Below are positions 31,762 to 61,697 of a DNA stretch of 64,000 nucleotides, piece by piece. The position numbers and the translations under genes are program-made. Source of the stretch: Asterias rubens. Lineage: Eukaryota. The stretch spans positions 5,828,001-5,892,000 of the forward strand of contig NC_047068.1 of the NCBI RefSeq assembly GCF_902459465.1, in the 5' to 3' direction. Within the stretch, counting starts at the first letter, position 1. The number at the start of each line of letters is the position of its first letter. The notes below the pieces were generated by a model. That model saw only the letters and a list, made by a program, of their open reading frames with translations, was not told the DNA's origin and did no database searches.

Positions 31762-32252
31762 AATGCTACTCAATGCTAAAGCATAGGGCCAGAATCCTAC
31801 ATAGTGCTAAAGCATAGGGCCAGAATCCTACACAGTGCTAAAGCATAGGGCCAGAAACCTACTCAATGCTAAAGCATAGGGCCAGAATCCTACACAGTGC
31901 TGAAGCATAGGGCCAGAATCCTACACAGTGCTGAAGCATAGGGCCAGAATCCTACACAGTGCTAAAGCATAGGGCCAGAATCCTACACAGTGCTAAAGCA
32001 TAGGGCCAGAATCCTACACAGTGCTAAAGCATAGGGCCAGAATCCTACACAGTGCTGAAGCATAGGGCCAGAAACCTACTCAATGCTAAAGCATAGGGCC
32101 AGAATCCTACACAGTACTTAAGCATAGGGCCAGAATCCTACACAGTGCTGAAGCATAGGGCCAGAATCCTACACAATGCTGAAGCATAGGGCCAGAATCC
32201 TACACAGTGCTGAAGCATAGGGCCAGAATCCTACACAATGCTGAAGCATAGG
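31762..32252. repeat. 31-bp minisatellite, ~15.5 copies
   Basis: Unit gct(a/g)aagcatagggccagaatcctacacagt, period 31 from 31775 to 32240. Confidence 0.97.
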
Positions 32253-36625: not shown

Positions 36626-37827
36626 GTGTAGTGTGTTAAATTATACTCTTGTTGATCCTGGCCATCACATTTTTTTTTTTTTTTATTTTTTTTGTGGGTT
36701 GGGTGGTTTTTTGCTATGGGGTGGGTTTCAGGGGACATTTCTTGTGACAGGACGGCTTTGTAGAGGTGCTGGTCACCTGTTCCTCCTCGTCACTCACTGG
36801 CTTGGTATTTTTTATAGCTAATTTGATTCTTTATTTCTTTATGTATCGATTTGTATTTCTATATTTTTATGCCAGTGTAAAGTCTAATAAAACTAAAACA
36901 TTAGGGTTGTTTTGTAATTTCCTGTGCCCTTACTGTTTGTCTTGCTTTGTATTTACTTTTGTTTTTATATTATTTATTTTACATACTGTCTACTTGTATA
37001 TTGTTAATGTTTAATGGCCAAATAAAGAATAAGAATAAGATGGAATAATAAGTAAGAATAAGGGATGAACTAGCCCCATGCATAAATGAACATGTTATTT
37101 GATAATGATAGTTACAAATTAGAGTAAAAGTCTTAAGTATCTGATATAAAATAATTGACGTTGATCGTTTATCCATTTATAATATTGATAGTGACCAGTT
37201 AAGAACACTGTGCACAAAACAACTTCTTACCGAGAAAGATGTCCATCAATGTTTCGGATCGGCATCATATCACCAACTCCGCGTCAAGCTTTAGCGACGA
37301 CGGACGAGAGAGCATGCAGTGTACATGTACGTTATGCATGCGTGTATGTGTATGCTGGTACTCAGTTATTTTTGCATTGGCTTAACACAGCGACGTGAAG
37401 AGTACCAGTTATATAGTGAGTAGAGTAGAGTAGAATCCTACTCGTACATGTACCATAGGAAATCTCTTCGCATATCTTGCACCAATTGTATATGCCAGAA
37501 TGACGTCCGCTGGCCCCCACGATTATTTTCACGTATTTTCACTGCGTCTGCGTTGAGTTATCTATGCGCTATACGATCTCTTTGGTGTATACACACAAAT
37601 TTCATTTTGTCCGTCACAAGGTCACGCAGCTAGCTCCACGCTCCAGGCTACTTCTTCAAAGGAAGCCCTTGAAAGCTGCAAATTTGCATATAGTGCACCA
37701 CCAGTAGGTGTGCTCATGGGGGTCATTCGTCGGGCCTCATCTCGTTACCATTCTCTGTTAAAAAATGTACTCTCATCTGATTCAGCAGCTCTCTAAAGGA
37801 TGAAATATAAGGCTACAGTCAGTTTGC

Positions 37828-40800
37828 ATGAAACCGAAAGCCAGATTACTTAAGCATCACCTCCTCATTTTGGGACTAGGAATAATGTTCCGATTCTTAA
37901 GAAGTTATTTCAATGAGATTGTAAAAGAAGGTGAAAACATCGGATGCATCGCCGTGTTTGGAATGTTTACTATAAACATGATCTGGAACGGTGTAATAAA
38001 GAGTCTGGCTGTGATGCTACCGACTCTACAGGAACAGTTCGGTGCTTCAACGTGGCTGGTTGGGTGGATGATAGCTTTAATAGACGGCACTTGTGACCTA
38101 GCAGGTACGTCGGCCTTGCCCTGCCGTCAAAAAAAGGGTCGGTCACACAATAATAATATTTATTTATTCGGGCAATCACATTTACAAGCACATGTACATA
38201 CATTAAACATATTTAAGAAAACAAAGTAAAACAACAGTGGGGTGCCCAGGAGAGCATAAAAGTAAAACAAAATATCGCCAAAAGGCGATGGAAAAGTTTC
38301 CGTATGGCGCCACCACTTTTTCATTCGGTATGAAATAATATAGTATCTAATATACCTCAAAGAGATATCCTTTTTGTAAAAATGAGGGGGAAAAGTGGTG
38401 GCGCCATACGGAAAGTTATCCTACAATGCTTATATGACACTGCAAAAATTTCTAAATATCTCTGGAACGCATTTGTCAATCACCCCCATTCCTTCACCGG
38501 TGTAAAAGTAAATCCGTGACCTAATTAGAAATGATTATTATCTGTTTAAGATTTTTCTTGTTCTTAAAATAACATGGCTAAAGTAGTCCCAGCCTATTTT
38601 CTAAACTATCCACCTGTGTAATAGTTAAAAAGCAGCTTTTCATAACTGAGAAGTCTCCCGAACACACAAACAATCTACTCCGCGGTAGTAGAGTAAAGAA
38701 AGACAGTTCTCTAAGAACCGCAAACCAAATATATAATATAAATAGCTCCCATCCAATGATGAGTTTTAGGCCTAAAACTTTCCTGATGACCAAACTGAAA
38801 CATCATTACGGGCTGTTCGTTTGATCTGACACATCATAATGTTTGATACCTTCCACAGCTCCGTTTGCACCAATATTAAGGGATGCGTTTGGAGTCAGAA
38901 TGGTCATCATGGTCAGCGGTGTGGCAATGTGTGCATCGCTTATCTGTTCAGCTTTTTCAACCAGTTTGTCAACAATGGCTGTCGTTCTGACAGTTATTGG
39001 AGGTGAGTTTTGTATTGAAACAAAAATCTGTCTTACAAAAATAGCACAGTAGTATATTTAGCTGGCATCGCTTCAAAGTGATGTACGGAGAACTAGTTTT
39101 AGCATGTAAAGCTTACGCTAAATTCTGTTTCGAAGGTTCAAGATATATTCAGGGGTTATCAGCAGTAATGTAGCAGTACTATGTAAGCGCCTTATACGGA
39201 GAGGATTACAGCGTGGCGTGTCGGTCATGGTCTAGCGGTTAAGACCACCGGATTTAAAAACTCCGGTGTGTCCGATCAGTAGAGTGTGGGCTCGAGTCCC
39301 AGTCGTGACACGTGTCGGATGATGACGTAGATCCGTTGGTCCCGTGTGTTGTAATGCAGGTAAAAGAACCCAGTGCACTTATTGAAAAGAGAAAATGTGG
39401 CCGGTGTTCCTGGTTTGATTGGCAGTATATTGCATTGCGCCACAACACCTTGTAAACCATTACATGTTGCTATGTAAAAGGAATAGGTCTCATACTTTAA
39501 ACGAAGTCCCACATACCTTGTATTGTTGACAAATACAGTATGTTAAAGCGCCTTGAGCGTCACCGGGTCCGGTGACGGATAAACGCACTAAATAAGAAGC
39601 CACTATTATTACTATCATTTATTGAGCCCAAATTTTGTGCCGTTAATGATAAGTCCAAGCATTTGATTAAATTTGACAGCAAAGTCTATTAAAGTCTGCA
39701 AAACGTACTTAAACATTATCTTAAACTTTATGGCAATTGTTTTATAGTTCTCTAACCAACACGGAACTCTTTTGCCCTCAGGACCCACACTTGGGATTGC
39801 CAGTATCATAACCAGGGATCTGATTGGTCGATGTTTCGACAAACACTACTCCACTGCGTTAGGCATAACTGGTGTAGGTGGCTCTTTGGGGTACATTATT
39901 TTTGCCCCTCTGACGCAATTCCTCTTGGACCTCTATGGTTGGAGAGCAACGATGATGCTACTTGGTGCACTGTTCTTCAATCTCACCGTGTGTGGCGCTC
40001 TAATGAAATCACGAGATGGAGGCTACAAGGCGGTCGACAATGGAAAACAGAGTGTTGTAGATGATCAAGATAACGGAGCAAGTCGACAAAGTCGATCATC
40101 TCATCGTACTTCCATTTGTAACTTAATCGCCATGAATCTACCTCTGGACTTATTCACATCAGTCCGTTACTGGCTTATAACATTCGCCTCTGTCATGTTT
40201 TTTTTCTGTATGTATGCGTGGTTGATCTACTTTGTACCACACGTCACTATGTCAAAGGGATTTTCGCCCACCGATGCTGCTAACTTCGTTTTAGTTTTTG
40301 GTGTTGGAAAGATGTTAGGGCATTTACTCGTTGGTCAAGCCGTTTCTGCTTGTGACAAGATTGGTCTAGATGCTAATGTGTGTATGTTGATATCACTTGG
40401 TGTGATGTCCACTTACTATTTCATTGATCCATGTTTGATAATTAGCTGGGCGATTTATGTCAGTGTATTCATTTATGGATGTTTCCATTCCTTCACGTAT
40501 ACACTGTTTGACGTCATCACAAAAGAAGCGATCGGAGCGGATCAGTTGGGAAGCGCCTTCGGATGGATTGCGTTCAAATGTGGTGCGATGAGATCTGCAT
40601 TGCTTTTCTTTCCAGGTAGGCGTTTTGTTGATGTTCATTATTTATGGCCTCAAAATAATATGGTGTTATTATCAGGTTTTTGAGCAGCATTGTTAAAGTT
40701 AAAGCGAGTCCTGTTTATCGTTTTCACTAAACCATTTTGTTTTGTCACTGTTTTGTTTTCCGTTCTAGGTTTGGTGTTTGATACACTCGGTAGCTACACC

Positions 40801-40899
40801 TTAGCATTCCTCATCATGGGTGGAATGAACTTACTGAGCTTCTTTGCACTGCTCTACCTGATGTGGTTAAAAAGACACCGTCTAGAAACTGGCATTTAA
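37828..40899 (+). CDS. Monocarboxylate transporter (SLC16/MCT-family MFS), 4 exons, ~461 aa
   Basis: Exons 37828-38104 (start could instead be ATG 37885), 38859-39002, 39782-40615 and 40769-40899, all joined by phase-1 GT-AG introns. MCT-like motifs: LPTLQEQFGASTWLVGW, FDKHYSTALGITGVGGSLG, LLDLYGWRATMMLLGALFFNLTVCGALMK, GLVFDTLGSYTLAF. Confidence 0.9.
38290..38421. mobile_element. Small MITE with ~30-bp TIR (truncated reverse copy at ~29600-29730)
   Basis: ggaaaagtttccgtatggcgccaccactttt and aaaagtggtggcgccatacggaaagttatcc. Confidence 0.75.
39213..39615 (+). mobile_element. tRNA-derived SINE, near full length (MCT intron 2)
   Basis: Box A-like tggtctagcgg, box B-like gctcgagtcc, conserved-type body (ccgttggtcccgtgtgttg...gtaaaagaacccagtgcactt), LINE-like tail aaagcgccttgagcg ending in (att)n-like repeats. 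Confidence 0.8.
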
Positions 40900-41153
40900 A
40901 TAGCTTGAACTTCCAATGCTTAAACCCTCCCAAATGGTCTGCAGCCAGTAGATCAAAAACATATTTTAATTATCAACTTTTTTTCTTTTTTTTGGCAAAA
41001 ACATGTGAAAACCTTTAAATTTCTATCCGCTGACAGGCCCGATCGACATGGTCTGTGCAAACAAATACTATAGTTTTACAGTGTAGAAACATACGAAACA
41101 AATGTTAAAAATTAAAACAAGTAATTTGTTTTCGAAACAGCATTGGTGTACCT

Positions 41154-42134
41154 CTTTTACTTAGAGAATATTCAGATATAACTCGGCCGAATTTTCAAGA
41201 ACATCCCGTTAAACACAATGTCACGCACCATATTACCACCACGGGCCCACCAGTGAATGCACGTCCCCGACGATTGGCCTCAGACAAGTTACATATAGCC
41301 AAAGCAGAATTTAATCACATGCTTGACTTGGGAATAATCCGTCCCTCAAAAAGCCCATGGTCTTCACCTTTGCACATGGTACCTAAGAAAAATGGCGATT
41401 GGAGACCTTGCGGTGACTATCGTGCTTTATATAATGCCACAACACCTGATAGGTACCCGATTCCCCACATTCACGATTTTGCAGCAACCTTACATGACAA
41501 GAAGATTTTCAGTAAAGTTGACCTAGTCAAGGCTTACCACCAGATACCTGTTGAACCCGAAGATATACCAAAAACGGCAATAACTACACCTTTCGGCCTT
41601 TTTGAATATATAAGAATGCCATTCGGGTTAAGAAATGCTGCGCAAACATTTCAAAGATTTATCGATCAAGTATTACACGGCTCGGATTTCACCTATGCTT
41701 ATATTGACGATTTGTTGATTGCGAGTGAAAATGAGCAACAACATGAATATCATCTTAGACTACTTTTTGACCGCTTACGAGAATACGGGGTGGTAATCAA
41801 CCCTAGTAAATGCGAATTCAAAGTAACTAGTCTTGATTTCTTAGGCCACCATATTGACTGTCATGGTATCAAACCTTTGGAAAATAAGGTGAACTTAATC
41901 CAAGACTTTCCAGTACCAAATTCACTCCGCAAATTGAGAGAATTTCTGGGATTGATCAATTTTTATCGGCGTTTCATCCCACATTGCGCTGATATTTTGC
42001 AACCCTTGACTGACATGCTGTCTTGCAAGTCAAAAGACAAAGCGATTTCACTGACCGAATGTGAATTGGCATCTTTCCAAAGAGCAAAATCTACTCTAGC
42101 TGAAGCTACTATGTTAGTACACCCAGCTGTAGAC
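41154..42134 (+). mobile_element. Ty3/gypsy LTR-retrotransposon pol fragment: reverse transcriptase and connection
   Basis: Open frame with [75 protein letters not shown]. Homology stops at MLVHPAVD. No gag, protease or LTR seen upstream. Confidence 0.95.
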
Positions 42135-42375
42135 ACCAATACATGTGTACACTGCAGATTGAGGACATACTTTTCATACTAATTTACTATCCAATGGAGG
42201 ACATTGCCAAAAGTCGAATGGTACCTATCGATGTGAGGACATAACACATGAATCCTTTTTCTTGCGGTTCACTAATGTGAATGTGTATACTGGCCTTATA
42301 GGAAATGTTTTGGGGGTGGTACACGATTTTCTTGTTCTTTGGGGGGGGGGGGGGGGGGGGGGGCAGGCCAAAGGT

Positions 42376-43003
42376 CTAGACTAATCATTTGGCTGTGCCT
42401 ACAGAGTCACTCTAGGTTATGACTGTACTTTGGTGGTGCATGAGACCTTAAATTTGTTAAAGTGTCATCGTGTTTCTACAAAAGTCCTTAATGTTTTTCA
42501 AGTTCTGGTCTGCAATGCCACAGGACAGGACGATTCAATGTCACGTTTTCCTGGAATCTTCTTCAGCAAAATGAATCTCTGCAAGCCCTCGGTTACGTCT
42601 TTCTTTTCCTGGGCAGTCCAGGGGCGTCGCTTGAATTGTCGACGCTCGACTTGTCGAGCTTTTGGAGCTGGATCCGTTTGGGTTGGTGGCCTTCCTACAA
42701 CACACAGGAAAGAAGAGGTCAGTTAGTAAACATAATCAAATGGGGCGTATACATAACCTAAATATGTTCATTTTACCGGTGTCACATTAACTCCTCGAGT
42801 AAATCAATAAGCAATTTAGCACAAAAGAATGCGATAAAGGTACCTGCAGAAAATGCCTGACAAGAAGCAGCCATCTTGTTTCATCCTACCGTACAAAATG
42901 AGTTGCCCAGATGGGCTAATCTAGACTAATCACTTGGCTGTGCCTACAGAGTGACTCTAGGTTATGACTGTACTTTGATGGTGCATGACACCTTAAATTT
43001 GTT
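42376..43003. repeat. ~83-bp direct repeat pair bracketing the Myb-like exon
   Basis: tctagactaatca(t/c)ttggctgtgcctacagagt(c/g)actctaggttatgactgtacttt... at ~42376-42458 and ~42920-43003. Confidence 0.85.
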
Positions 43004-43209
43004 GACAGCAAACAGAGTCTGGCATGTTATCGCATTTTGGTCTAGGGGGGGGGGGGGTAAACAGGGAATAGGACCAGCATATGCAAGAGACCTACAAGAG
43101 ATATAGGCATTAAAAAATATTAAAAACTTACTGGCATCAACACTGTCCTCCAAAGCTGGGTCACACGAGTCACCTGAATCACTGCTGTCCTCATCGCTGG
43201 TGAAGCCTT
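42457..43209 (-). pseudogene. Two spliced 3' exons (acidic exon plus Myb/SANT-like terminal exon) of a truncated, element-type gene
   Basis: Exon 43209-43132 (EGFTSDEDSSDSGDSCD) and exon 42694-42457 (KRRPWTAQEKKDVTEGLQRFILLKKIPGKRDIE...ALQTRT), joined by a phase-1 GT-AG intron. Restoring one G at 42499 gives WKNIKDFCRN. I recall this motif from the C-termini of tyrosine-recombinase (Crypton-like) proteins of aquatic animals; this is unverified. Confidence 0.6.
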
Positions 43210-43650
43210 CTGCAATAAAAAGAAATTAAACTTCTACAGTTAGCTTTGATTGGTTTCTGGCACACAAATAACAATGTGGGCCAATCCGTTTGGTTGGGTG
43301 TGTGGGGTTTGGGGTGTACAGTGATTGATGTTCAAAGGGGGGGGGGGGAGGGGGGGTTAGGTGATGACGGCCACAGGCCGAGTTATCAGGCCCCAAAAAC
43401 AAAGAGCAATTGTTACATTTAGGTATGCTTGCTTTTTGGCGTACACACCTAAACATGTTGGCCAATCCATTGGGGGGGGGGGTGGAGAGGGGGGGGGGAG
43501 GTTGTACAGTGAATGAATGTTATTTGGGGGGGGGGGTACCACAGTTTGAATTAAATTGGAAAGACAAGTTAAAAATGGGTTTGTTTACCTCCAGGAACAT
43601 GCAACTCCTCCAAAGATTTGCCATGTTGCGAAACCATTTTTCATCTATAG

Positions 43651-44322
43651 GATGCATGGGAATTGGAAGATTCAGAAAAGCGTCTACAGAGAGCAGGACT
43701 TAGTCGCCTGGAGATACTAGAGAAGTCACATTTGGATGAATGCATCTGCAAGGGTGAATGGCTTGCATGTGCTGAAAATGTATTACTTAACAATGATTTG
43801 TGCAATAAGAGTTTTTCTAAAGCAGTAACAACTCTCCTGGACGAGGGTAGGGGAAAATATCGTAACATCATGATTACTGGGCCAGCAAATTGTGGGAAAA
43901 CATTTCTTTTAAATCCATTAAATAAAATATACAATGTATTTACCAACCCAGCAACAACAACATTTGCTTGGGTTGGTGCTGAGCAATCTGAAATCATATT
44001 CCTGAATGACTTTCGGTGGACCTCGCAAATAATACCTTGGCAAGACTTGCTATTATTACTAGAAGGTCAACTCGTCCACCTCCCCGCCCCAAAATCGCAT
44101 TTTGCACAAGATTTAATTTTAAATAAGGACACCCCTATTTTTTGCACTCGCAAAAATCCAATAGTTCTTGTCAAGGGTGGCTCTGTGGATGAAAGGGAAA
44201 CAGAAATGATGGCCGTGTGCTGGAAAATATTGCCATTTCACCACCAGATTCCTGAAGATGAACAGAAGTGTGTACCACCTTGTACGCGATGCTTTGCATC
44301 ACTAATCTTAAATAAGGAATAG
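43651..44322 (+). CDS. Superfamily-3 helicase, parvovirus NS1 / CRESS-Rep-like C-terminal half (possibly inactive)
   Basis: Walker A GPANCGKT (43879-43902), Walker B-like IIFLND (43993-44010), motif-C-like TPIFCT and a C-terminal CxxC (PCTRCF). The frame opens at 43651, after an in-frame TAG that also forms an acceptor-like tttttcatctatag. No HUH nuclease domain is visible upstream. Confidence 0.8.
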   Translation, partial: DAWELEDSEKRLQRAGLSRLEILEKSHLDECICKGEWLACAENVLLNNDLCNKSFSKAVTTLLDEGRGKYRNIMITGPANCGKTFLLNPLNKIYNVFTNPATTTFAWVGAEQSEIIFLNDFRWTSQIIPWQDLLLLLEGQLVHLPAPKSHFAQDLILNKDTPIFCTRKNPIVLVKGGSVDERETEMMAVCWKILPFHHQIPEDEQKCVPPCTRCFASLILNKE

Positions 44323-44455
44323 TTTGAAACAGTCTCATATAGGTCTATATAAAGGATTTTGATAGAAAAATTTGATGCCCGTTCTGCATTTGCCCCCCCC
44401 CCCCAATCCATGATCACAGCCTAAACTGTTCTAAGTGCCCATTTTCAAAGTACGT

Positions 44456-44824
44456 TCAAGGAACACGTTGCCTTGGATCGGTCGAGTTGGTCTTTGAAAA
44501 GCGTTTGTTATAAAATGTATATAGGTAGAAAGATGCTGTAAAAGTAGAATACAATGATCCACACAAACATGCCTCGAAATTGTACGGTTTTCCGTTTTAC
44601 ACAGTCGGCCATGTATGGGAGTCAAATTTGTTGACTCCCATAAATGGCCGACCGTGTTAGTTCGCACAGTAAAAGGAAAACCACGCTATTTCGAGGCAAA
44701 CTTGTGTGGATCATTGTATTCTACTTTTTACACATCTTTCCAACCATATGCATTTTATAACAAACGGTTAAAAACGCTTTTTTATATACCAACTCGTCCG
44801 ATCCAAGGCAACGTGTTCCTTTAA
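44456..44824. mobile_element. MITE family B copy, just downstream of the SF3 helicase stop
   Basis: aggaacacgttgccttggatcggtcgagttgg ... ccaactcgtccgatccaaggcaacgtgttcct|TTAA. Confidence 0.85.
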
Positions 44825-45659
44825 AACCAACGTGTGAAATGTTCCCAAAGACTTGGTGCTTTTTAGAGAGTACAGCACAATGAAGTGGTTGATATTATAC
44901 AATTTGGCACATAATTGTCAGAAATACACAAAAGTTCTCACTATCTGTTTATTATTATTATTATTATTATTATTTATTTGGCAATTCACATACAAATACA
45001 AAAATATAAATACAATAGAAATACATTACGAACTACCTGGGAAGTTAACTGTAATAAAGTTTCACAAGTATGCAGACTGATTTTCACCGTTTCATTTTTG
45101 TACCATTCCAAAGTAGAAATAATAGTCTGGTTCCTTTTTATGGTGAGTGATTTTTTATCATCAATGTCATTGGGTATACTGGGAACCAGACCAAGATAGC
45201 CACAGTGTAATATAGGTCTATAGTTTTGTATTATATCAACATGTTAACAGACAATTAATGATAGGATTTAGGACTTTTATACAAGTTATTGTCATGGTGG
45301 TCTTAAATTAAAAAGGGTTTTAACTTTATGAATGAGTACCAGTGTGAAATTGTCACTTTTTTATTTAATGTTAACTATGTACGCTGAACAATAGGTGTGC
45401 TTTGTCAATGTAAATCCATCACTATAAATACCTTCAGAACTACAGGGCAAGTTGATTTTTAGTCAGTGTCACAAGTATGCAGACTTGTTTGATAGACTCT
45501 GTATCCCCTGCACCCCCCCCCCCCCCATTACAATGTTGTGGCTCCCGCGCAGTCTCACTTTTGCGCACTCGGCCCTCTACAACATTGAAGGGGGGGGGGT
45601 ATCAGCTTTTGCATAATGTCGTAGAAAAACTTCAGGTCGCATCCACCCACCTACCCACA

Positions 45660-48600
45660 ATACGTTGTGTGGTATTCGGTGGGTAAAAGCCGGAACTATC
45701 ATTTTATGTTTTACTACGACGCTTAGGGAATCAACATAGATTGTACACCCATACGTTGTGCGTTATGCGGTGGGTAAAATCCGGAACGATGGCAGTTTTC
45801 TGTTTTACTACGGTGCTTAGGGTATCAACACCACATGGTAGTAGTTTCAGAGTAGATCGTAGGCATATACATACACACTGCGCCATTTGTGTTTAATATT
45901 TCAATATTGGCAACAACAACAAAAGCATCAAATGTAATTCACGCATTATACAATCTACAGAATTGAGACACAATGCTAAAGATACTCAGTTAATTGTTAC
46001 TAACATGTTTACTAACTGGGACAGCCAGTGTTGATGTTCATTTTTTTATCAAGTTTTTGCACAATATTATTCAGAACTCAATTTGTACAGGTTTAACATT
46101 CATCCGTTTAATAAGCCAGGGCCTAATCTAATATTATTATAGACCCTCGTCCATTGTTTGGAAGTCGAGGTCTCCATGCCCTGCGTCCATAGCTTTGATA
46201 GTACATGGTATGGGGGGGGGGGGGGGGTGCAAGAATATATGATTTGAGGGTTAATTTTTACCCCAACAAATGTTTGCAATAATTGTATTACATCAAGAAG
46301 AATGTGGCTAAAGAACTGAAGCTTGTAAATACTTATTGAACTATTTTGAGCGCTTTCAGTTCGGCTTCGCATCTTAATGTGGTTAGGGTGGGCTGTCGTA
46401 GCAACGTCCGGCAAGTCGTCTGTCACATTAAATGACTATTTTCAATTAATGTCAAGTTCAATTCATTCAATCATTTCAAATTTACAGAAATATTACATCA
46501 CAGGAGAACAACCACAATTAAGTTGAGGTTATAAAAACAATTTTTTTTCCACTGTCACCATTATGGTCATAATTGTTTGCAATATTATGAAGTTTTACAT
46601 TTTATTCGGCAGCTTTTTTTCTATGTGAGTTATAACAGCCTATTTATTATATAAAATATTACGTATAGTGGGGTCCAATCAACATGTATGTCTACAAGTT
46701 GTGTATAAATGCGAAGGTCGGTAAACCAGGTCGGAACTCTCATTAATTTCTGCAGTGTAGTGAAGTAACGTCATGTGTAAATAAATTCAGTAGATTTTTG
46801 GTGGCAATTGAAACAATCCCTGTTTTATGTTATCTACACAATTTTTTTTCGGGGATGTTTTCCAGTAAATCAAGCTCTGGTTAGAACTGAAGAAGTTTAT
46901 ACAATTTGAGTTAAAACCTAAATTCGCGCGTGCAGTCGTCGTCTACTAACTTCAAAATAGGTTCTCGTGAAAAAATAAATTGAGGGTAAAATTTGTAACG
47001 ATCAATTACAGATTTTCTTGTCAGTAAAACAACGATACTAACGGAATTGACTCACGAGTTATTCAGTGTTCAGCAGATTATACTCGATGTAATAAGTGCC
47101 TTAAACTACCGGGTAAAATTCCGAACGATCTCAGTTTCATTCTGCTGTTTTTCTGCACGACGCTTGTCACACACACACCATACGTTGTGTGGTATTCGGT
47201 GGGTAAAAGCCGGAACTATCATTTTATGTTTTACTACGACGCTTAGGAAATCCACGAAGATTGTACACCCATACGTTGTGCGTTATGCGGTGGGTAAAAT
47301 CCGGAACGATGGCAGTTTTCTGCTTTACTACGATGCTTAGGATATCAACACGTCATGGTTGTAGAGTAGATCGTATAGGCCTGTACATACACTGCGCCAT
47401 TCGCGTTGTTGTTGTAAATTATTATTTACATAGATTTTGACAATTTATTTTTAGTTTGAACACACCTATTCTGTAGATGTCAAAGCTGAATTTGTACAGG
47501 TTTAACATTCATCCGTTTAATAAGCCAGGGCCTAATCTAATATCATATTATAGACTAGACCCTCGTCCATTGTTTGGAAGTCGAGGTCTCCATGCCCCGC
47601 GTCCATAGCTTTGATAGTACATGGTATGGGGGGGGGGGTTCCAAGAAAATATGATTTGAGGGTTAATTATCACAACAAAAAATGTTACCAGTAATTGTAT
47701 TATATCAAGAAGATTATTTGAACTTTTCGAGGAATTTATATATTGTTCAAAATTATCGGCCCTGGTGGTATTCAAACTGCCACCGAGGGCGCTGTTGAAA
47801 AACGAATTCGCTCATTTTGAGGGTTTCCTTCCAGCCAGTTTTAACAAGTATTAATGTGGCTAAAGAACTGAAGCTTGTAATACTTATTAAACTATTAACA
47901 AGTCATGGTTGTAGAGTAAATCGTATAGGCCTGTACAAACACTGCGCCATTCGCGTTGTTGTTGTAAATTATTATTTACATAGATTTTGACAATTTATTT
48001 TTAGTTTGAACACACCTATTCTGTAGATGTCAAAGCTGAATTTGTACAGGTTTAACATTCATCCGTTTAATAACCCATACGTTGTGCGTTATGCGGTGGG
48101 TAAAATCCGGAACGATGGCAGTTTTCTGTTTTACTACGGTGCTTAGAGTGTCAACACCGCATGGTAGTAGTTTTTAGAGTAGATCGTAGGCCTATACATA
48201 CACCGCGCCATTTGTGGATAAAGGTCGGGACAACCAGTGTTGTTGTAAATTATTATTTACATAGATTTTGACAATTTATTTTTAGTTTGAACACACCTAT
48301 TCTGTAGATGTCAAAGCTGAATTTGTACAGGTTTAACATTCATCCGTTTAATAACCCATACGTTGTGCGTTATGCGGTGGGTAAAATCCGGAACGATGGC
48401 AGTTTTCTGTTTTACTACGGTGCTTAGAGTGTCAACACCGCATGGTAGTAGTTTTTAGAGTTCGTAGGCCTATACATACACCGCGCCATTTGTGGATAAA
48501 GGTCGGGACAACCAGTGTTGTTGTAAATTATTATTTACATAGATTTTGACAATTTATTTTTAGTTTTAACACACCTATTCTGTAGATGTCAAAGCTGAAT

Positions 48601-48900
48601 TTGTACAGGTTTAACATTCATCCGTTTAATAACCCATACGTTGTGCGTTATGCGGTGGGTAAAATCCGGAACGATGGCAGTTTTCTGTTTTACTACGGTG
48701 CTTAGAGTGTCAACACCGCATGGTAGTAGTTTTTAGAGTTCGTAGGCCTATACATACACCGCGCCATTTGTGGATAAAGGTCGGGACAACCAGTGTTGTT
48801 GTAAATTATTATTTACAAAGATTTTGTTTAGTTATTTTTTTAAAAGTTTTTATACAATTAATTCAGTAGATTTAAAAACTAAATTAATTTGTACAGGTTT
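45660..48900 (+). repeat. Array of ~1.5-kb composite modules, ending in a ~280-bp triple tandem (47957-48830)
   Basis: Blocks recur visibly: the cggtgggtaaaakccggaac subunits at 45681, 45772, 47111, 47201, 47292, 48098, 48379 and 48657, and aatttgtacaggtttaacattcatccgt near 46080, 47490, 48040, 48320, 48600 and 48890. Confidence 0.9.
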
Positions 48901-49250
48901 AACATTCATCCGTCTTATTTACAATTATATACACTTACCCTATTTCTGAGTCTTGGCGGAATTAAGCTTCATTTGGCGGCGCTGGCCAGCTTTGACTTCA
49001 TTCAAATTATTTAAGATCTCCCAAATACAATTACTAGCTACTATTTATATTTAATTATTAAGAGATATTACTTTATACATTAATGGTGTCCTCCAGCTGA
49101 AAGGTTGCTGTATAGGAGTAGTGTACTACCAATTCAGTTTCCAGTCAGCCTTTGGACAACCACAATAAATGAACCTTAATAAATACTACGACTACATGTG
49201 TATAGGTTAGAGAGATACAACCTTTCTGTACCAAAAGCTGGAGAAGAGTG

Positions 49251-49908
49251 AGTTATTAGGCGTTGTGTTGCTCTAATACCTGGATGAGATAGGTTATGTA
49301 TCGAATCAAAAATGTTACGTCTAAATTCAGGAGTGACGTATGGACGTGGATGTCCGGTAGATGTGTCACAAATTATGGTATTGTGTGAAGTGAGAATAGG
49401 CACCTCTTCAAATTGAAGACTAGACGATTCACGTAGCTTACATAGCTCTGGGTCTGTCTTTTGCTGAAGGGCGATTTGTTCAAAGTTCACATCACTACCG
49501 GGAAGGCTAGGATGGGTAAACTAAACTTATGTCATATCGGGATAGAGCATCTGCTACAAGGTTTTCTTTACCTTTAATGTAACGGATGTCAGTACTGAAC
49601 TGAGAAATATAGTCTAAATGACGTACTTCTCTTGGCGAGTATATATCGGGCCTTGCATTAAAAGCATATATTATAAGTGGCTTATGGTCAGTCAGAATAT
49701 AGAAGTTACGACCTTCCAAAGCATACTTAAAATGACGTATGGCTAAGTATACAGCCAGCAATTCACGACCAAAAGTACTGTATCTAGTCTCTGCTGGTTG
49801 TAAACGTTTAGAAAAAAATGAAATTGGTCTCATAACGTCGTTGTCACATTGCTGAAGTACACCGCCAACTGCAAGGTTGGATGCATCTACCATTAGACAG
49901 AGAGGTAG
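49251..49908 (-). mobile_element. Ty3/gypsy pol fragment: RNase H and start of integrase Zn-binding region, frameshifted
   Basis: LPLCLMVDASNLAVGGVLQQ, FFSKRLQPAETRYSTFGRELLAVY, TDHKPL, GKENLVADALSR. After a frameshift near 49500: RPYVTPEFRRNIFDSIHNLSHPGIRATQRLIT, then truncated. Confidence 0.92.
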
Positions 49909-49989
49909 GTGGGGGGGGGGGGGGGGTGTGTGTGTGTGTAAGATCACTGTTGCACTGATTAACAAGCGTCTTACGGGAAAAAAAGACTA

Positions 49990-52900
49990 CAAAATGAAAT
50001 CGTTCCAGGTTTTACCCAGTAATTTAAAGCACACATTACGATGAGTGCAATCTGCTGAATATTGAATCAATCGCGTGTCAATTCCGTTTAGCGTCGTTGC
50101 TTTACGGACAAGAAAATCTGTTTCATATTTTACCCTCAAATTATTTACTTTATGAGAACCTTCATAAAGTATATAGGCCTACGACGACTGTACGCACGTA
50201 CCAGTTTAGGTTTTTAATTTAAATTGTATAAATTTCTTCAGTTCTGACTAGAGCTTGGTTTACTGGAAAACAACCGAGGAAATTAATGGTGTCTAAAACA
50301 TAAAACATGGAATATTTCAATTGCCACCCAAAATTTACTAATATATTTATAATGCACAACACTGCAATGAGAGTTCCGACCTGCGTTTACCGACCGTCGC
50401 ATTTATACACACTTCATGTATGCATACATGTTGATTCGAACCCTACTATAACGTCCGTCATATTTTATTTAAAGCCTATTAAAACAAGTTTGCTTAATTC
50501 AACAATTAAAAAACATAATACTGCAAATACAAAAGACCATGACAAACTTGCATTTAATTATCTGATTACAGTGGAAAAATAATTGTTTTAGTAACCTCAA
50601 CTTATTATAAATGTTGTGTTTGTTCTCCTGTAATGTTACATTTTGTCAATTTTAAATAATTGAAATAAGTTAAACTTTAATTTGGCATAATAATTGACAG
50701 CCGATACTTGACGGACGTTGCTATGACAGCCCACCCGTGACCACATTAAGATGCGAAGCCGAACTCAAATCGCTCAAAATAGTTCAATAAGTATTTCCAA
50801 GCTTTATTATGTCCCGATTATGTCTTCAGTTCTTCAACCACATTACTACTTGTGGAAGGAAGCCCTCAAAACGAACGAAATCGTTTTTCAAAACAGCGCC
50901 CTCCGGTGGCAGCTTGAATACCGCCAAGGCCGATAAATTTGACCAAACTTTATATAATTTCCATGAAAAGTTCCAATAATCTTCTTGATATAATACGTTT
51001 ATTGCAAACATTATTTGTAAAAATTTACCTCATCATATTTTCTTGGACCCCCCACCCAACCCATGTACGTTCAATGCTATGAACGCGGGTTTCGACCTGC
51101 AACTTCCAACCAATGGACGAGGGTCTATAATAATATTCGATTATGCCCTGGCTTATTAAACGGATGAATGTTAAACCTGTACAAATAGAGTTATTAAATC
51201 TACTGGATTAATTGTTTTAAACAAACTTTAGAAAAAAAACCTCAACACCATCTTTGTAAATAGTAATTTTCAAACACTGGCCGTCCCGACCTTTATCCAC
51301 GAATGGCGCAGTGTATGTACAGGCCTACGATCTACTACTATGTGGTGTTGATACCCTAAGCACCGTAGTAAAACAGAAAACTGCCATCGTTCCGGATTTT
51401 ACCCACCGCATAACGCACAACGTATGGGTGTACAATCTTCGTGGATTCCCTAAGCGTCGTAGTAAAACACAAAATGATAGTTCCGGCTTTTACCCCCACC
51501 GAATACCACACAACGTGACAAGCGTCGTACAGAAAAACAGTGTTTCAATTCCTCTAACATGGTTTGTTTAACTGATAAGAATAAAACTGTGAGTGATAAT
51601 TTCGAATTTTAACAACAAACTGATTTACTTCATGGGAACCTTTTTGAAATAATTATATTCATTTTTGTTTTTACCCATGTACACCGATGTGTGTTATGCC
51701 AGAGTTCTGTGAAAGAAATCACATACACATTACTCGGGTGGGATTCTTTGAGTTTGTTTTTGAGTTACTACGACTGCACGCACGTACAGGCCAACCCATT
51801 TCACGGTTCGAACCTGAGCTTGATTTGCTGGAGAATATATCAACAATTAATGACATTCAGGCCAAGAAAATAATGCTGTCGAGAACATGAGTGAGTAACA
51901 TGAATTGTTTCAATCGAAACAACATATTTTACATGGTTTGACTGCAAAAATAACTTCCACGGTGCAAAGATTTGACTTTGAAACATAAGTTCCGACCTGC
52001 AACTTCCAACCATGCCGGGTCGTGAGTCGATTCAGAAATAATGCATGCCCAATCAGCTTGTGTGAGTTCCGACCTGCGTTCTTTATATAATCTATACACG
52101 ACATGTAAGTGACATTTTTTTTACATAATGTACGATCAATGCTATGTCAACACGACGCAGGTTTTTACCTGCATTTTCAAACAATGGACGATGTTTACTT
52201 TACTTCACTTAACTTTCTTTTCCAAAAAAAAAAATAATAATAATAATATTATGTGAAAATAACAGAAGAGATGGTTTAATCAAGTAATAGTTTTTACCAT
52301 AGCAGTAATCAACTTGGATGTGGAGGGGGTCTCAAGCTTGTTAAGTAGTTGCCCCATTGTTACAATTATTTTAACAAAGATTGGAAAATAAGAACAGAAT
52401 AAACAACTCACAAACAAAAACGAGGGGTCTTGTGTCATAAGAAAAACCCCATAACAAAAAAACAATATCATAATACTGATATAGATTAATGAAATAACCC
52501 CATGAGAACAATATCAGTTATTCAAGAAATCTTTTTGTAAACAGTTTTTTTAATAATTATTTTCGTCTAAAGTGTGATGGACTAGAGATGGGGTGTCAAC
52601 AGAGCTCCATAGCTTGGGCCTCGCATATTTCACACTTATTTTAGAAAGTGTAGTGCGAGTATAAGATTGATGAAATTCATGACACTGCCTTGTGAAGTGA
52701 TGATGAATTTTCTTTTTTTTTTTTTAAACATAGAACTGATTGAATTGGGCGAGGTTTTTTAAAAAGTTGATGCATGAGAGAGCAAAGCTGGAGAGAATAA
52801 ATTTCATTAACTTTTAAAAACAAGGCAATTATAAAAAGGGGATTATAAGTAACTGTTCACGAGCATTAAATTTTTTTTAAATAAATAAGTCGAACTCTTG

Positions 52901-53690
52901 TCAGGATTCTATTAAAGTATTACCCCAAGAAAGTGCATCGTAAAAATAAGGGTTGATGTACATAACCAAATTCATTGATACATACTGGGGAAAACAAATC
53001 AAATTAATTTTAAGCTTAGAAATAATACAAATGTTTATAGAAACGGCTGTGGATGCATTGATATGTTTATAGGCTAGGCTAGCCCACCTTGTTGAGCTGT
53101 TAAATGGCTCCGCTTTTAACATCGGTCTCATCACTGTCAGCTTTTAACATCGGTCTCATCACTGTCAGCTTTTAACATCGGTCTCATCACTGTCAGCTTT
53201 AAACATCGGTCTCATCACTGTCAGCTTTTAACATCGGTCTCATCACTGTCAGCTTTTAACATCGGTCTCATCACTGTCACCATTACAGTGATGAGACCGA
53301 TGTTAAAAGCGGAGCCATTAATAGCTCAACAAGGTGGGCTAAGGCTAGGCTGCCCTGAATGACGGTTTAACCTTGAAATCCTGAATTATTTTAAAACATT
53401 TGTTGTCATAAACCGAACAAAATCGTTTGAAAGATTATTTAAACAAACTGCCATCGTTCCGGCTTTTACCCACCAAATATAACGAACAACGTACGGTGTG
53501 TACAATTTGTAGATCCCTAAAGCACCGTAGTAAAACAGAAAACTGCTATCGTTCCGGATTTTACCCACCGAATACCGCACAATGTATGGGGTGTACAATC
53601 TCCATGTAGATTCCCTAAGCCTCGTAGTAAAACAGAAATGATAGTTCCGGCTTTTACCCACCGAATACCGCACAGTACAACGTATGGCCG
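49990..53690 (-). repeat. Reverse-complement copies of the same composite module
   Basis: 49990-51190 mirrors 46080-47130, 51300-51545 mirrors the subunit block, degenerate pieces run to ~52200, and three more subunits lie at 53440-53690. Confidence 0.85.
53080..53341. mobile_element. Short foldback MITE with 6 x 28-bp tandem expansion of the left arm
   Basis: TIR tagcccaccttgttgagct; 9-bp TSD aggctaggc (53071-53079 and 53342-53350); unit gcttttaacatcggtctcatcactgtca at 53112-53279. Confidence 0.9.
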
Positions 53691-53833
53691 TGTGTGTACG
53701 ATCCCCCCCCCCCCGATACAGAAAACCAGAATGCTTTATGTCTGTGCGTGTGGCGTGTCCGTGGGGAATCCCCCAGCGCACGCAATGAAATTGAACCGCC
53801 ATCATTTTAAATCAGAATTCCTACTAATAAAAG

Positions 53834-53843: not shown

Positions 53844-54020
53844 TACAGGATCTGTTTATAGACACAGTTGGTGTGATCTGTCAATTCAAAACTCAAGTGA
53901 TCCAGACTCAATTGATCCTGGTAAATCAAGATACCTTGACATTTTCCCCAGGCTTAACGTACACCTGGACAGTTCCTGCGTGAGCGATACTCTACAACTA
54001 TAAAGTAAGCAGGCTACACC

Positions 54021-57000
54021 ATGGCGTGTAGTGCTATGCCTAACCTGGATCCATTTGTGTTTGACCCGCAGAGTGATGAGCCCACCGCTCTCAGTTCCAA
54101 ATGGGATAAATGGCTGAAACGTTTTGAAAGAGCTATGGTCGGTTATAACATTAATGGAGCAAAAAGAAAGCGGGCATTGCTATTGCATTACGGAGGTGAG
54201 CAACTTGAGACTGTTTTTGATACACTTTCTGACACAGGAGATGAGAATGATTATGAGAAGGCAATAGAAGCTTTGACGGCTCACTTCGTTCCAAACCCCC
54301 TCCATGAAACTATCATCTTCTTCAGGAGTTTGAAACAGAACCCGGAGGAAAACGTTGATCAGTTTTGTACTCGTCTCCGAAATGCAGCAGAAAAGTGTGA
54401 GTTTGGTGATCTGAATCGCCAACTGATCATACAATTCAGTATAGGATGCTCTTCAATAGAACTTCGGCGTGAAGCACTTGACAATATTCTTGTCGAGAAG
54501 GCGTGCAATCTACCACAGCTGTTAGACTTCACACAGTCCCTTGAATTGTCAAACAAACAAGCCGATGCCGTTCAAAACCAAACCGACATTCAGCAAAACC
54601 CTGACAAACTTTCTCAGAGTCAGACTCAACACATCGGTGACAAACCTACCCGTCATGAGAGCAAAGACCAAGGAGTTCTCTATGATGAGAGCAGACATAA
54701 GCCATTGTACGACAGTACCAAGAATAGACCTACACAGCAAAACGGAAATAGTGCAACTCCGGTAAGCTAAACCATTAACTTGTATGCCCCGCCGGTGTCC
54801 GATGCAATTGTATCCGCCATGCAGAACTGTCCGCTCCGGACACTTTTGCACATGCAATCGTGTCCGGGGCTATGCAAAAATCGTCCGGCGGACATGTACA
54901 TGACGGTACATGTATGTGCGTGCATAAGCGAGCGTGCATGCACTAAACATACGTATATCACGTAATGATTGCACCGAATACCCAACGGCCGAACATTTCC
55001 CGTGTCATTCATGACATTATACACTTAGCTTGAAAAACAAACAAATGGCCAACGTGTTCCGTCGATCAAGGGCCTTTAATTTGCTGCAAGGACGGTCTTG
55101 CAGGGGGAGGACACAACTGCATATGCAAATGTGTCCGGGCGGACACAATTGCATTATGCAGCGGCGTCCGGGCGGACACGGTTGCATACGCAATAATGTC
55201 TTCCGGATAGTATTGCAAATAGGACATCATTGGAGTTCGGGGATTACAGTGTTGTCCAGAAACGCCGGGCCGGTGATTTCGCCAGCTACTTGGTCCTTTT
55301 GATTTCGCCCCCCAGTTTTTGCCGCCTCCAATTTAATTTTCCCCAGTTAAAATTACTGTCAACGACTGGAATTTTTCAAAAATGAAAACGCCGTATTAGA
55401 CACAGACATAGCACGAACCATTCTGGCATCCTGTCATCGCACCTGGCGTCACTGCAACACCTTCTCCATTGTACATTGTTTTTATTTTAAACATTATAGC
55501 CAAGGACTGCAAATAGAGTATTTGCTGCTCCGACGGGGCAACCCCCACCCAACTGTAGCAATTGTATACATGGTTGACAAAAGAATTAGTAACAGTTTAC
55601 AAGGGTAAATGGTAAAAATAACATTTGAAATTGGTCAAGGTTTAGTGTTGTACACAATCAGTCAGGTGGTATAGGAATATGCTACAAAATAAAATTTACT
55701 CAGTTTATTTTAACGTAAAATACGGTAATTATCCTTAATAATAATTATAATAATAATACTAATAATAATAATCATAATTTATTCATTTGTATTGTGCCCA
55801 ATCCCATCAAATAATACCCAATCAACCCACAAACGGCTCATCAGAGAGAAAGATTTCCAACTCTGAACAAGAAAAAGATGAAAGTTCAAAGAAAACCAAG
55901 GCTAGTGATAAAACAAGCAGAGCGGGCTCCCTGGGTGCAGTAAGTGATTTTACATAAGTGTATGCGAGTTTCCAAAGTAAAGCTTTATTATAAAGCCCTA
56001 TAGCTAGAGCGCTACGTTCATCCGGTAGTCGCAGGTTCGAGTCCCTCTCTCCTATCAATTTGTTCAATCAAAATTAATTTTCAAATTTACCCAGTCTTCA
56101 TTTCTTATCTGATAACAGGTTTCAGTGTCAACCTCCAAACAATTGTTGCATAAAAACGGCCAATCAAAGAAAGCAAAGTTCAATCCTGAACTGGAAAAAG
56201 AGATATTGCAGAGTTACGAGGAATTTAAAGACAGAAGCTACATGGCTACGGTACGTAATTTTTTTTTTAGTTGCTTATAACGAAAGTTATATGTGAACTG
56301 CATAACAATTATTGCACATCAGTCATACAGCAACAATTTTCCAATGAAATCTGATAAATTTCTTGCCTAACGCTAACAAACACGGGAGTTTTTTACAGAA
56401 ACGAAACCGTTAATGCTACTCTCACATAGGGAGAACGCTACTGAATGTGCTTACGAACGGAAATATTTAACAATCGCTCAAACTTCGCAACATTCGCCAC
56501 AAATTCACCACGCTCACAAGTCATTCTCCACCTCCTTACGAAGATCGGTCACTTTATGCTGCTCTCACACGGCGAATATGCTAGCGAATATGCTATCGGA
56601 AGGACATATTTGACAATCGCTCAAACTTCGCAGCATTCGCCGTGTCTTCGTAAGCGTTGGTAACAAATTCGGAACGCACAAAAATTATTCCCCACCTCCT
56701 AACGAAGATCGCTCAATTTACAATCCGGTTTGTTAATTTCAGCAAATGTTGCGAAGATGGTCATTCGGCTTGATTTTCGTTAGCATTGGTAACGTTGGTA
56801 AAGCGTGCATAAGCGTTTGAAACGTTCGTGAAGGCATTGACAAGCGTTGGTAAGCATTTGTAAACATTCGTAAGATATTGGTAAGGAGTGGGCCAACCGA
56901 AGACGATCGAGGGGTGAGACCGATATGAAAATATTCACTATCCAACCGCCATTTTGGACGAATTCTACGCGCAGTTCAAATATTCATGTTCGCAAGAACA

Positions 57001-59610: not shown

Positions 59611-61697
59611 TACATGAGTAGGATTTGAAAATGTGCATGGTAGTAATGCAATCTGGTGAGGGTTGGAGTAACACCATGTACTTGAGTAGGATTTGAAACT
59701 TTGCATGGTGGAGATACAATCTAATAAGGTTTGCAGTAACACCATGTACATGAGTAGGATTTGAAACTTTGCATGGTGGAGATACAATCTAGTAAAGTTT
59801 GCATGTACATGAGTAGGATTTGAAACTTTGCACGGTGGAGATACAATCTAGTAAGGTTTGCAGTAACATCATGTACATGAGTAGGATTTGAAACTTTGCA
59901 TGGTGGAGATACAATCTAGTAAAGTTTGCAGTAACACCATGTACTTGAGTAGGATTTGAAACTTTGCATGGTGGAGATACAATCTAATAAGGTTTGCAGT
60001 AACACCATGTACTTGAGTAGGATTTGAAACTTTGCATGGTGGAGATACAATCTAATAAGGTTTGCAGTAACACCATGTACATGAGTAGGATTTGAAACTT
60101 TGCATGGTGGAGATACAATCTAGTAAGGTTTGCAGTAACACCATGTACATGAGTAGGATTTGAAACTTTGCATGGTGGAGATACAATCTAATAAGGTTTG
60201 CAGTAACTCCATGTACTTGAGTAGGATTTGAAACTTTGCATGGTGGAGATACAATCTAGTAAGGTTTGCAGTAACACCATGTACATGAGTAGGATGTTAA
60301 ACTTTGCATGGTGGAGATACAATCTAATAAGGTTTGCAGTAACTCCATGTACTTGAGTAGGATTTGAAACTTTGCATGGTGGAGATGCAATCTAGTAAGG
60401 TTTGCAGTAACACCATGTACATGAGTAGGATTTGAAACTTTGCATGGTGGAGATACAATCTAGTAAAGTTTGCATGTACATGAGTAGGATTTGAAACTTT
60501 GCACGGTGGAGATACAATCTAGTAAGGTTTGCAGAAACATCATGTACATGAGTAGGATTTGAAACTTTGCATGGTGGAGATACAATCTAGTAAAGTTTGC
60601 AGTAACACCATGTACTTGAGTAGGATTTGAAACTTTGCATGGGGGAGATACAATCTAATAAGGTTTGCAGTAACACCATGTACTTGAGTAGGATTTGAAA
60701 CTTTGCATGGTGGAGATACAATCTAATAAGGTTTGCAGTAACACCATGTACATGAGTAGGATTTGAAACTTTGCATGGTGGAGGTACAATCTAGTAAAGT
60801 TTGCATGTACATGAGTAGGATTTGAAACTTTGCACGGTGGAGATACAATCTAGTAAGGTTTGCAGTAACATCATGTACATGAGTAGGATTTTAAACTTTG
60901 CATGGTGGAGATACAATCTAATAAGGATTGCAGTAACACCATGTACATGAGTAGGATTTTAAACTTTGCATGGTGGAGATACAATCTAGTAAGGTTTGCA
61001 GTAACACCATGTACATGAGTAGGATTTTAAACTTTGCATGGTGGAGATACAATCTAATAAGGATTGCAGTAACACCATGTACATGAGTAGGATTTTAAAC
61101 TTTGCATGGTGGAGATACAATCTAGTAAGGTTTGCAGTAACACCATGTACATGAGTAGGATTTGAAACTTTGCATGGTGGAGATACAATCTAATAAGGTT
61201 TGCAGTAACACAATGTACTTGAGTAGGATTTAAAACTTTGCATGGTGAAGATACAATCTAGTAAGGTTTGCAGTAACACCATGTACTTGTCGAGTAGGAT
61301 TTGAAACTTTGCATGGTGGAGATACAATCTAGTAAGGTTTGCAGTAACACCATGTATATGAGTAGGATTTGAAACTTTGCATGGTGGAGATACAATCTAA
61401 TAAGGTTTGCAGTAACACCATGTACTTGAGTAGGATTTGAAACTTTGCATGGTGGAGATACAATCTAAAAAGGTTTGCAGTAACACCATGTACTTGAGTA
61501 GGATTTGAAACTTTGCATGGTGGAGATACAATCTAGTAAGGTTTGCAGTAACACCATGTACATGAGTAGGATTTGAAACTTTGCATGGTGGAGATACAAT
61601 CTAATAAGGTTTGCAGTAACACCATGTACTTGAGTAGGATTTGAAACTTTGCATGGTGGAAAAACAATATAGTAATGTTTGCAGTAACACCATGTAA
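59611..61697. repeat. 68-bp satellite, ~31 copies, with 59-bp deletion variants
   Basis: Unit catgtac(a/t)tgagtaggatttgaaactttgcatggtggagatacaatcta(g/a)taaggtttgcagtaacac; period 68 (e.g. 59941 to 60009). Confidence 0.97.

Follow-up and report, generated by a model that had tools for sequence, protein, structure and literature searches.

The window analysed here is a 64,000-bp stretch of Asterias rubens DNA (assembly GCF_902459465.1, contig NC_047068.1, positions 5,828,001-5,892,000). Between 42 and 54 kb it holds a cluster of mobile-element sequences that a preliminary description, made from the sequence alone, had tentatively read as one composite element built from a superfamily 3 (SF3) helicase, the end of a Myb-like gene and iterated modules of about 1.5 kb. 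We compared each part with its copies elsewhere in this genome and with relatives in other species. The parts are listed below in window coordinates; handles such as C15 or L089 denote individual loci, contigs or fetched sequences.

41109-42134, plus strand: Gypsy-type pol gene, reverse-transcriptase part (RVT_1, E 4e-34); the insertion host, cut at 42134
42134-43637, minus strand: CryptonV-like tyrosine-recombinase transposon, of whose 5.74 kb about 1.4 kb, the downstream end, is present, with the last recombinase exons and the terminus at 42134; 10/10 fetched copies have the same end, 89-96% identical
~43589-43637, ~43132-43209 (acidic), ~42844-42885 and ~42430-42694 ("Myb-like", helical, last, broken by a stop), minus strand: last exons of the recombinase gene, with canonical GT/AG sites
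43638-44322, plus strand: an intron's final bases, followed by the SF3-helicase exon of an HUH-Rep/SF3 gene that lacks its HUH half and has a change in one conserved helicase motif; at 43637 it abuts the recombinase exon, one base being shared
44455-44824, no strand assigned: unrelated high-copy miniature inverted-repeat transposable element nested in the Rep remnant; four copies in the window, dozens at 91-94% elsewhere
45470-45657, plus strand: Rep/Tc1-family long terminal direct repeat in a decayed state, with a conserved hairpin core at 45519-45599 and then about 40 bases that precede the recombinase-transposon end in C15; 45590-45663 is 96% identical to C15
45658-48913, plus strand: module block A, with a 1.5-kb unit, a second partial unit and a 278-bp array, an internal part of a giant non-coding terminal-inverted-repeat (TIR) element; within the inverted segment; 94% identical at C1, C13, C6 and C16
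49248-49910, minus strand: Gypsy RNase H and integrase start, the other half of the split pol, inverted (RT_RNaseH, E 7e-25; 97-98% to intact copies)
49926-53733, minus strand: module block B, a 3.8-kb unit of the same TIR element with a final (CA)n tract at the right breakpoint of the inversion, the TIR end being absent from the window; 94% identical at C1 (tandem pair) and C13 (two loci)

We consider that this region is probably a chimera, in which pieces of three unrelated transposon families lie within a disrupted retrotransposon. The helicase would be what remains of a Tc1-like (DD34E) family in which an HUH-Rep/SF3 gene, likely used for copying as circles or tandem chains, is enclosed by long terminal direct repeats. 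The chimera itself likely goes back to one rearrangement, in which 45658-49910 was inverted and a 3.5-kb piece was captured at the left break. By itself the locus is ordinary genome debris.

Parts of the locus and their separate origins

The helicase frame at 43651-44322 (+) contains Walker A, Walker B and motif C and is 56-65% identical to the homologues listed, in agreement with the SF3 assignment made earlier. The only other close helicase copy in the genome is at C15, where an intron is seen before the helicase exon, at the same place as in relatives. The hairpin core of the remnant occurs once in the window (fold z -4.9), and a Tc1 transposase was not found in the window copy. At C15, a different element with an exon that by eye looks THAP-type (L008:950-3000) cuts off the 5' part of the Rep gene. 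Three tandem units of about 2.0-2.15 kb at C16:4291800-4297500 (L009, L010), each with a decayed, distant Rep helicase end, form a multimer of an older family.

The spliced acidic and Myb-like exons of the preliminary description are real as minus-strand exons, and one of them is acidic, but the Myb identity had to be given up: no Pfam match was found, the sole Atlas lead is unnamed and scored 0.87 (below 0.9), and these exons form a tyrosine-recombinase gene's 3' end. The same exons occur at C15, where they run on into a long recombinase frame that has 66 matches in the genome. Comparison of the ten best non-self loci among these matches placed the left end at 42134 in all ten and the right end, within the fetched range, in seven, 4.9-9.6 kb away (cleanest 5.74 kb). 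The copies have no inverted ends and carry ACAC or a near match on both sides, a 4-base terminal direct repeat, while a CA run lies at most 12 bases outside the left end in 7/10 (background 1.9%). The predicted structure of the C-terminal 317 residues of the C16 copy gave XerH, XerA and XerD as best fold matches (E 2e-4), and Phage_integrase matched the recombinase with E 1e-4, below the curated cut-off. With its recombinase gene, 4-base terminal direct repeat, microsatellite targets and lack of inverted ends, the family fits the Cryptons as covered in parts of PMC3212892 and the microsatellite-targeting CryptonV named in PMC8869645, a comparison of described features; only one of the two ends is present in the window. 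A 188-bp non-coding dispersed element (L044:3325-3512; 232 candidates in the genome) has the repeated end motif of the long recombinase element and stands at CA runs in 15 of 17 checked copies, against a background of 3.5%. It is likely a mini-Crypton.

The iterated modules were also confirmed, with a start-to-start spacing of 1520 bp (45653/47173), a 278-bp tandem array at 47957-48826 and inverted copies at 49926-51540 and 53445-53733. They recur with about 94% identity at eight fetched loci, in elements that have a sharp common end. Pairing of ends on the same contig gave spans of 18-53 kb, and target duplications of 9 bp were found in three of five end pairs, of 8 bp in one and of no length in one. 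A 9-bp target duplication is the rule for Mutator and Foldback elements. We class the module-bearing elements as giant TIR elements, non-coding and, going by target length, Mutator- or Foldback-like. The following were delimited; their fetched parts hold the modules together with 29-, 59- and 194-bp satellites.

C1:12097121-12129675, C13:14930319-14952850, C1:18000977-18019300 and C6:8283849-8336614: giant TIR elements of 18-53 kb with 8-9-bp target duplications

The (CA)n tract between blocks B and A holds the 188-bp mini element at C1 and C13 and is therefore a proven target of Crypton-type elements. A small inverted-repeat element with a 28-bp array is nested in block B (53071-53351), and a related copy lies at 29747-29924.

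Fetched sequences of 20-30 kb per locus show that these parts occur apart. Rep or helicase sequence was found in 0/10 recombinase loci and 0/8 module loci, the recombinase in 0/8 module loci, and the module in 0/10 recombinase loci save for one 107-base, 73% match at C18. The recombinase was likewise found in 0/79 Rep loci of other species. Helicase and recombinase end stand together at one other locus only, C15, and that locus has no module. The helicase, the recombinase end and the modules are not one element. The preliminary description had asked whether the three co-occur across the genome, taking independent occurrence as evidence against a composite with concatemeric module ends, and independent occurrence is what we found; its own fallback, a chance pile-up of unrelated insertions, describes the three separate families better. 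Ends and target duplications, which it had proposed to define for a single element, could be assigned at the recombinase terminus (42134) and for the module elements (9 bp in three of five pairs), and each part has ends and a target rule of its own. Common ends of the modules and the Rep/recombinase piece were rejected as well, the shared letters being Gypsy and target sequence.

The arrangement of the parts is explained by an inversion. Two other Gypsy copies in the genome (2/2) are uninterrupted across the break, the half that ends at 42134 running directly into the half at 49910, and single contigs from runs X1 and X6 cover both Gypsy halves, in opposite orientation. At C1 and C13, block A comes after block B, and both point the same way. 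Because the Gypsy copies are continuous and B precedes A at these loci, one inversion of 45658-49910 mends both the Gypsy and the module neighbourhoods. With this inversion undone, 42134-45657 remains as a captured piece at the left break. The inversion proposed earlier is thereby upheld, and undoing it does turn all modules one way, as had been predicted; they do not flank the coding cargo, however, but lie on one side of it, with no module sequence left of 45650 within the window. An inversion of 48914-53733 was considered instead and rejected: it also mends the Gypsy order but not the B-to-A order of C1 and C13, and still leaves the modules on one side. The joint at 45657 is bridged by an X6 contig, from another study, which argues against an assembly error. 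At 43637, an X3 contig extends to the junction but has no more than 30-31 bases on one of its sides.

The Rep/Tc1 family in relatives and in this genome

The nearest named relatives of the window genes are sea-star, sea-cucumber and coral proteins. Rep relatives were studied in 79 metagenome loci, near-duplicates included. In full-length relatives the helicase forms the second half of an HUH-Rep/SF3 protein of about 480 residues. HUH motifs I-III were recognised in 28, 28 and 32 of 32 proteins, and Walker A, Walker B and motif C in all 32. The predicted Rep structure (predicted local distance difference test score, pLDDT, 83) matches Rep68 of adeno-associated virus (AAV) over both domains (E 9e-12), and also papillomavirus E1. 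By fold and features its neighbours are parvovirus NS1/Rep and papillomavirus E1, with a weak PPV_E1_C match; a sequence search of solved structures with the Rep profile returned nothing meaningful. The earlier guess of a tyrosine-recombinase or rolling-circle element thus contained two correct assignments, the Myb-like exons belonging to a recombinase element and the helicase to an HUH-Rep gene, but the two do not share one element. Fuller copies, in which a tyrosine-recombinase or HUH gene was to be looked for, supplied both: the recombinase frame in other copies, the HUH half in the Rep relatives.

A Tc1-like transposase is encoded in 45 of the 79 loci and is the sole recurring partner frame of at least 110 residues; the recombinase, tried in that role, scored 0/79. 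Transposase and Rep lie tail to tail in 27 of the 28 loci that extend at least 1.5 kb downstream. The transposase has the domains HTH_Tnp_Tc3_2 and DDE_3, with a DD34E signature in 14 of 15 cases and a 2-residue insertion in the other. Rep and transposase distances correlate (0.52; 0/2000 permutations, 25 non-redundant pairs of 33), and their trees, that of the transposase being a quick version, have several groups in common. These data show that Rep and the Tc1 transposase are linked and co-diverging in the relatives.

Direct repeats of 150-330 bp, which have inverted ends of their own, flank the family unit of 3.7-4.3 kb; locus L089 has two identical 265-bp repeats with TA outside both. Junctions that share a repeat link units head to tail, and solo repeats and multimers are present. 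Four of the 79 contigs are self-closing at 3.8-4.2 kb, and a sea-cucumber protein model contains four Rep copies in a row. No capsid gene was seen among the 79 loci and no Rep relative in viral_contigs; spliceosomal introns occur in the Rep gene of some lineages. With 875 clusters at 50% identity (E up to 1e-30), this is a large and real family of Tc1-like transposon type with a Rep gene, widespread in marine animals and apparently undescribed. In marine metagenomes, Rep genes of this kind might be taken for viruses.

The terminal repeats share a core that consists of a C-run, a stem, a variable loop, the second stem and a G-run. This pattern was found in 30/79 Rep loci and in 0/1580 shuffles, and it has 840 overlapping matches in the A. 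rubens genome against none for the reversed pattern. Seven of 13 checked core loci of this genome are TA-bounded units, solos or small multimers, and two lie beside transposase remnants. A 3.98-kb TA-bounded derivative (L166:2358-6335, C6) has transposase remnants and terminal repeats and no detectable Rep.

Comparison with known systems

The Repbase classification used for comparison was taken from parts of PMC5753468. In KolobokP elements, long terminal direct repeats enclose a DDE transposase gene and a second gene, for a nuclease, and multimers form without any Rep, according to the sections of PMC9587614 that deal with them. Shared with the Rep/Tc1 family, on that account, are terminal direct repeats with their own inverted ends, solos, multimers in which neighbours share one repeat, and marine invertebrate hosts. 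The enzymes differ: a Kolobok transposase and a His-Me finger nuclease stand in place of a Tc1-like DD34E transposase, TA outer flanks and a convergent HUH-Rep/SF3 gene, and the 150-330-bp repeats with a conserved hairpin core are a further difference.

Elements of the IS630/Tc1/mariner superfamily with DD34E have in common with the family the Tc1-type domains, the catalytic spacing, inverted ends and TA flanks (both ends of L089; 7/13 loci of this genome). Inverted ends and TA are not recognisable in the window copy, and the right end of L134 has no TA. The second gene and the long direct repeats set the Rep/Tc1 family apart from them. L31 elements (ITm) are said to carry ORF2. They are DD37E, in contrast to the 34-residue spacing here (in the parts used of PMC7325037 and bioRxiv 10.1101/656579).

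Virus-type Rep genes in repeated elements have precedents. One Tuber melanosporum element combines a Rep, transposase frames and 37-bp inverted ends, as reported in passages of PMC3198968; it shares the pairing of virus-type Rep and transposase but differs in its geminivirus-like Rep, its fungal host and the lack of a target duplication. By the tree labels in the same paper, the Rep of the Hydra element DENSOV_HM groups at the base of papillomavirus helicases. It too is a virus-type Rep in a repeated element, the passages concerned mention neither transposase nor long direct repeats, and it may be an early-noted member of the Rep/Tc1 family, judged by description and tree labels, not sequence. 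As in elements derived from parvoviruses or CRESS-DNA viruses (circular, single-stranded and Rep-encoding), HUH is fused to SF3 in full-length relatives, of which the window keeps the helicase half only; no capsid gene was found. Helitrons pair a two-tyrosine Rep with an SF1 helicase, unlike the SF3 motifs and fold here, and Replitrons have a Rep without helicase and short direct repeats, unlike the fused SF3 and 150-330-bp repeats here. An HUH endonuclease in a eukaryotic transposon is common to all, and the sections of PMC10288648 on both groups mention no pairing with a DDE transposase.

No description of the Rep/Tc1 family was found in the literature searched, a scope without Repbase Reports and most subscription journals. 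It represents a KolobokP-like architecture with different enzymes, among them a viral-type Rep, for which fungal and Hydra precedents exist. For the way in which KolobokP-type direct repeats and multimers come about, a Tc1 element that has retained its full HUH-Rep/SF3 motor over deep co-divergence offers a direct test, with a defined protein, a defined candidate origin and predicted circles.

Proposed formation of the chimera, probable role of Rep and neighbouring features

The locus C15 joins a counterpart of window position 45663, the right end of the Rep remnant, to that of 42134, the recombinase terminus. The captured piece is thus shown to be a circular permutation of the C15 arrangement, in which the Rep remnant is followed by the recombinase-transposon end. 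At the right end of the piece, 6 bases recur at the Gypsy break and 10 at the right junction. We propose that a CryptonV-like element landed some 40 bases past a Rep element's terminal repeat, giving a junction of the C15 type. A circle or tandem copy across such a junction, derived from a C15-like ancestor, could then have formed through non-homologous joining at 43637. Opened at the recombinase end, it may have been joined into breaks in the Gypsy gene and in the module (CA)n tract during the inversion, helped by the 6-10-base microhomologies and possibly by the recombinase. Two stretches kept in the window have since been lost at C15, which therefore, in its present state, was not the donor. 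The window illustrates how unrelated elements can be fused, through a recombinase end, microhomology and inversion, into what looks like a single unit.

For intact members of the family, two activities can be envisaged. Insertion at TA is established for Tc1 transposases, and the transposase would cut and paste the unit at the outer inverted ends. Cut-and-paste transposons have no copying activity of their own and depend on host repair for gains in number. From HUH/SF3 biology, Rep probably nicks in or near the hairpin core, and the helicase would drive unit-length strand displacement from one direct repeat to the next, which would yield one-repeat circles, shared-repeat multimers and solo repeats. 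The wider reading, that the family is a class of self-replicating DNA transposons not described before and common among corals and echinoderms, which couples Tc1 cut-and-paste to virus-type rolling-circle copying from an origin within the long terminal direct repeats, as a capsid-less hybrid of single-stranded DNA (ssDNA) virus and mariner, we put forward only tentatively.

Several observations weigh against these interpretations. The core pattern was written after the sequences had been seen, the window copy among them, and the hairpin stem is invariant, so the stem may instead be a pair of inverted binding sites. The terminal repeat in the window has no clear or intact inverted ends. Among the 79 loci, which as noted include near-duplicates, both terminal repeats are present in only two, of which L134 lacks TA on the right, and the junction repeats of L101 and L124 have TA on both sides instead of an inner flank. 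The self-closing contigs could be circles or collapsed tandem arrays. No intact element with Rep and transposase was found in this genome, where four transposase remnants and five loci with Rep remnants never occur together; because an intact two-gene copy is missing here, assignment to the family depends on the hairpin core and on evidence from other species. More than one order of events would fit the window, and among the contigs listed none bridges the junctions at 42134 and 49911.

Other explanations of the locus were weighed against this background. The one element with concatemeric module ends of the preliminary description has to its credit that the parts are adjacent, that the X6 contig makes the 45657 joint real DNA, and that helicase and recombinase end recur together, circularly permuted, at C15. 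With co-occurrence of 0/10 and 0/8, 0/79 in other species, separate ends and target rules for every part and modules on one side only, it is scarcely credible. A smaller hybrid, the piece 42134-45657 moving as a unit through the recombinase, would account for two copies (window and C15) that are 93-98% identical and opened exactly at the recombinase terminus, and for CA-type sequence touching both breakpoints, one of them the module tract that holds the mini element at C1 and C13. Yet the piece has one recombinase-type end only, its other arm lacks the repeated motif that intact copies carry at either end, it is known from two loci, and the Gypsy site is not a (CA)n tract; we regard its mobility as improbable.

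Two further alternatives accept the chimera or leave it aside and differ about Rep. Rep might be no replicator but an accessory enzyme, a nuclease or resolvase favouring recombination between the terminal repeats in the way suggested for KolobokP's His-Me nuclease, or it might be a passenger. KolobokP indeed combines a plain nuclease with repeats, solos and multimers of the same kind (parts of PMC9587614), and non-coding derivatives have spread in the A. rubens genome without Rep. Against this, all 32 proteins keep the whole SF3 motor, which would be superfluous for a mere nickase, and the long co-divergence of Rep and transposase argues against a passenger, so that this explanation is unlikely, if less so than the mobile hybrid. 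That the family is an endogenous ssDNA virus, parvo- or CRESS-like, with the Tc1 transposase as integrase and a capsid gene yet unseen, is suggested by its parvovirus and papillomavirus neighbours and by the filing of DENSOV_HM as an integrated virus. The transposase as the only recurring partner frame, a unit of 3.7-4.3 kb that leaves no room, the lack of relatives in viral_contigs and the spliceosomal introns make it very improbable. The chimera with a Rep/Tc1 remnant remains the reading we prefer.

The surroundings contain other genes and repeats. A spliced major-facilitator (MFS_1) transporter gene lies immediately left of the Gypsy insertion (37804-40899, +). To the right, a 253-residue Gag-like frame of another retroelement, with a weak PNMA match (54009-54770, +), adjoins block B at about 53734. 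Two satellite arrays lie at 59611-61696 (68 bp, 31 copies) and 31760-32260 (31 bp, 16 copies).

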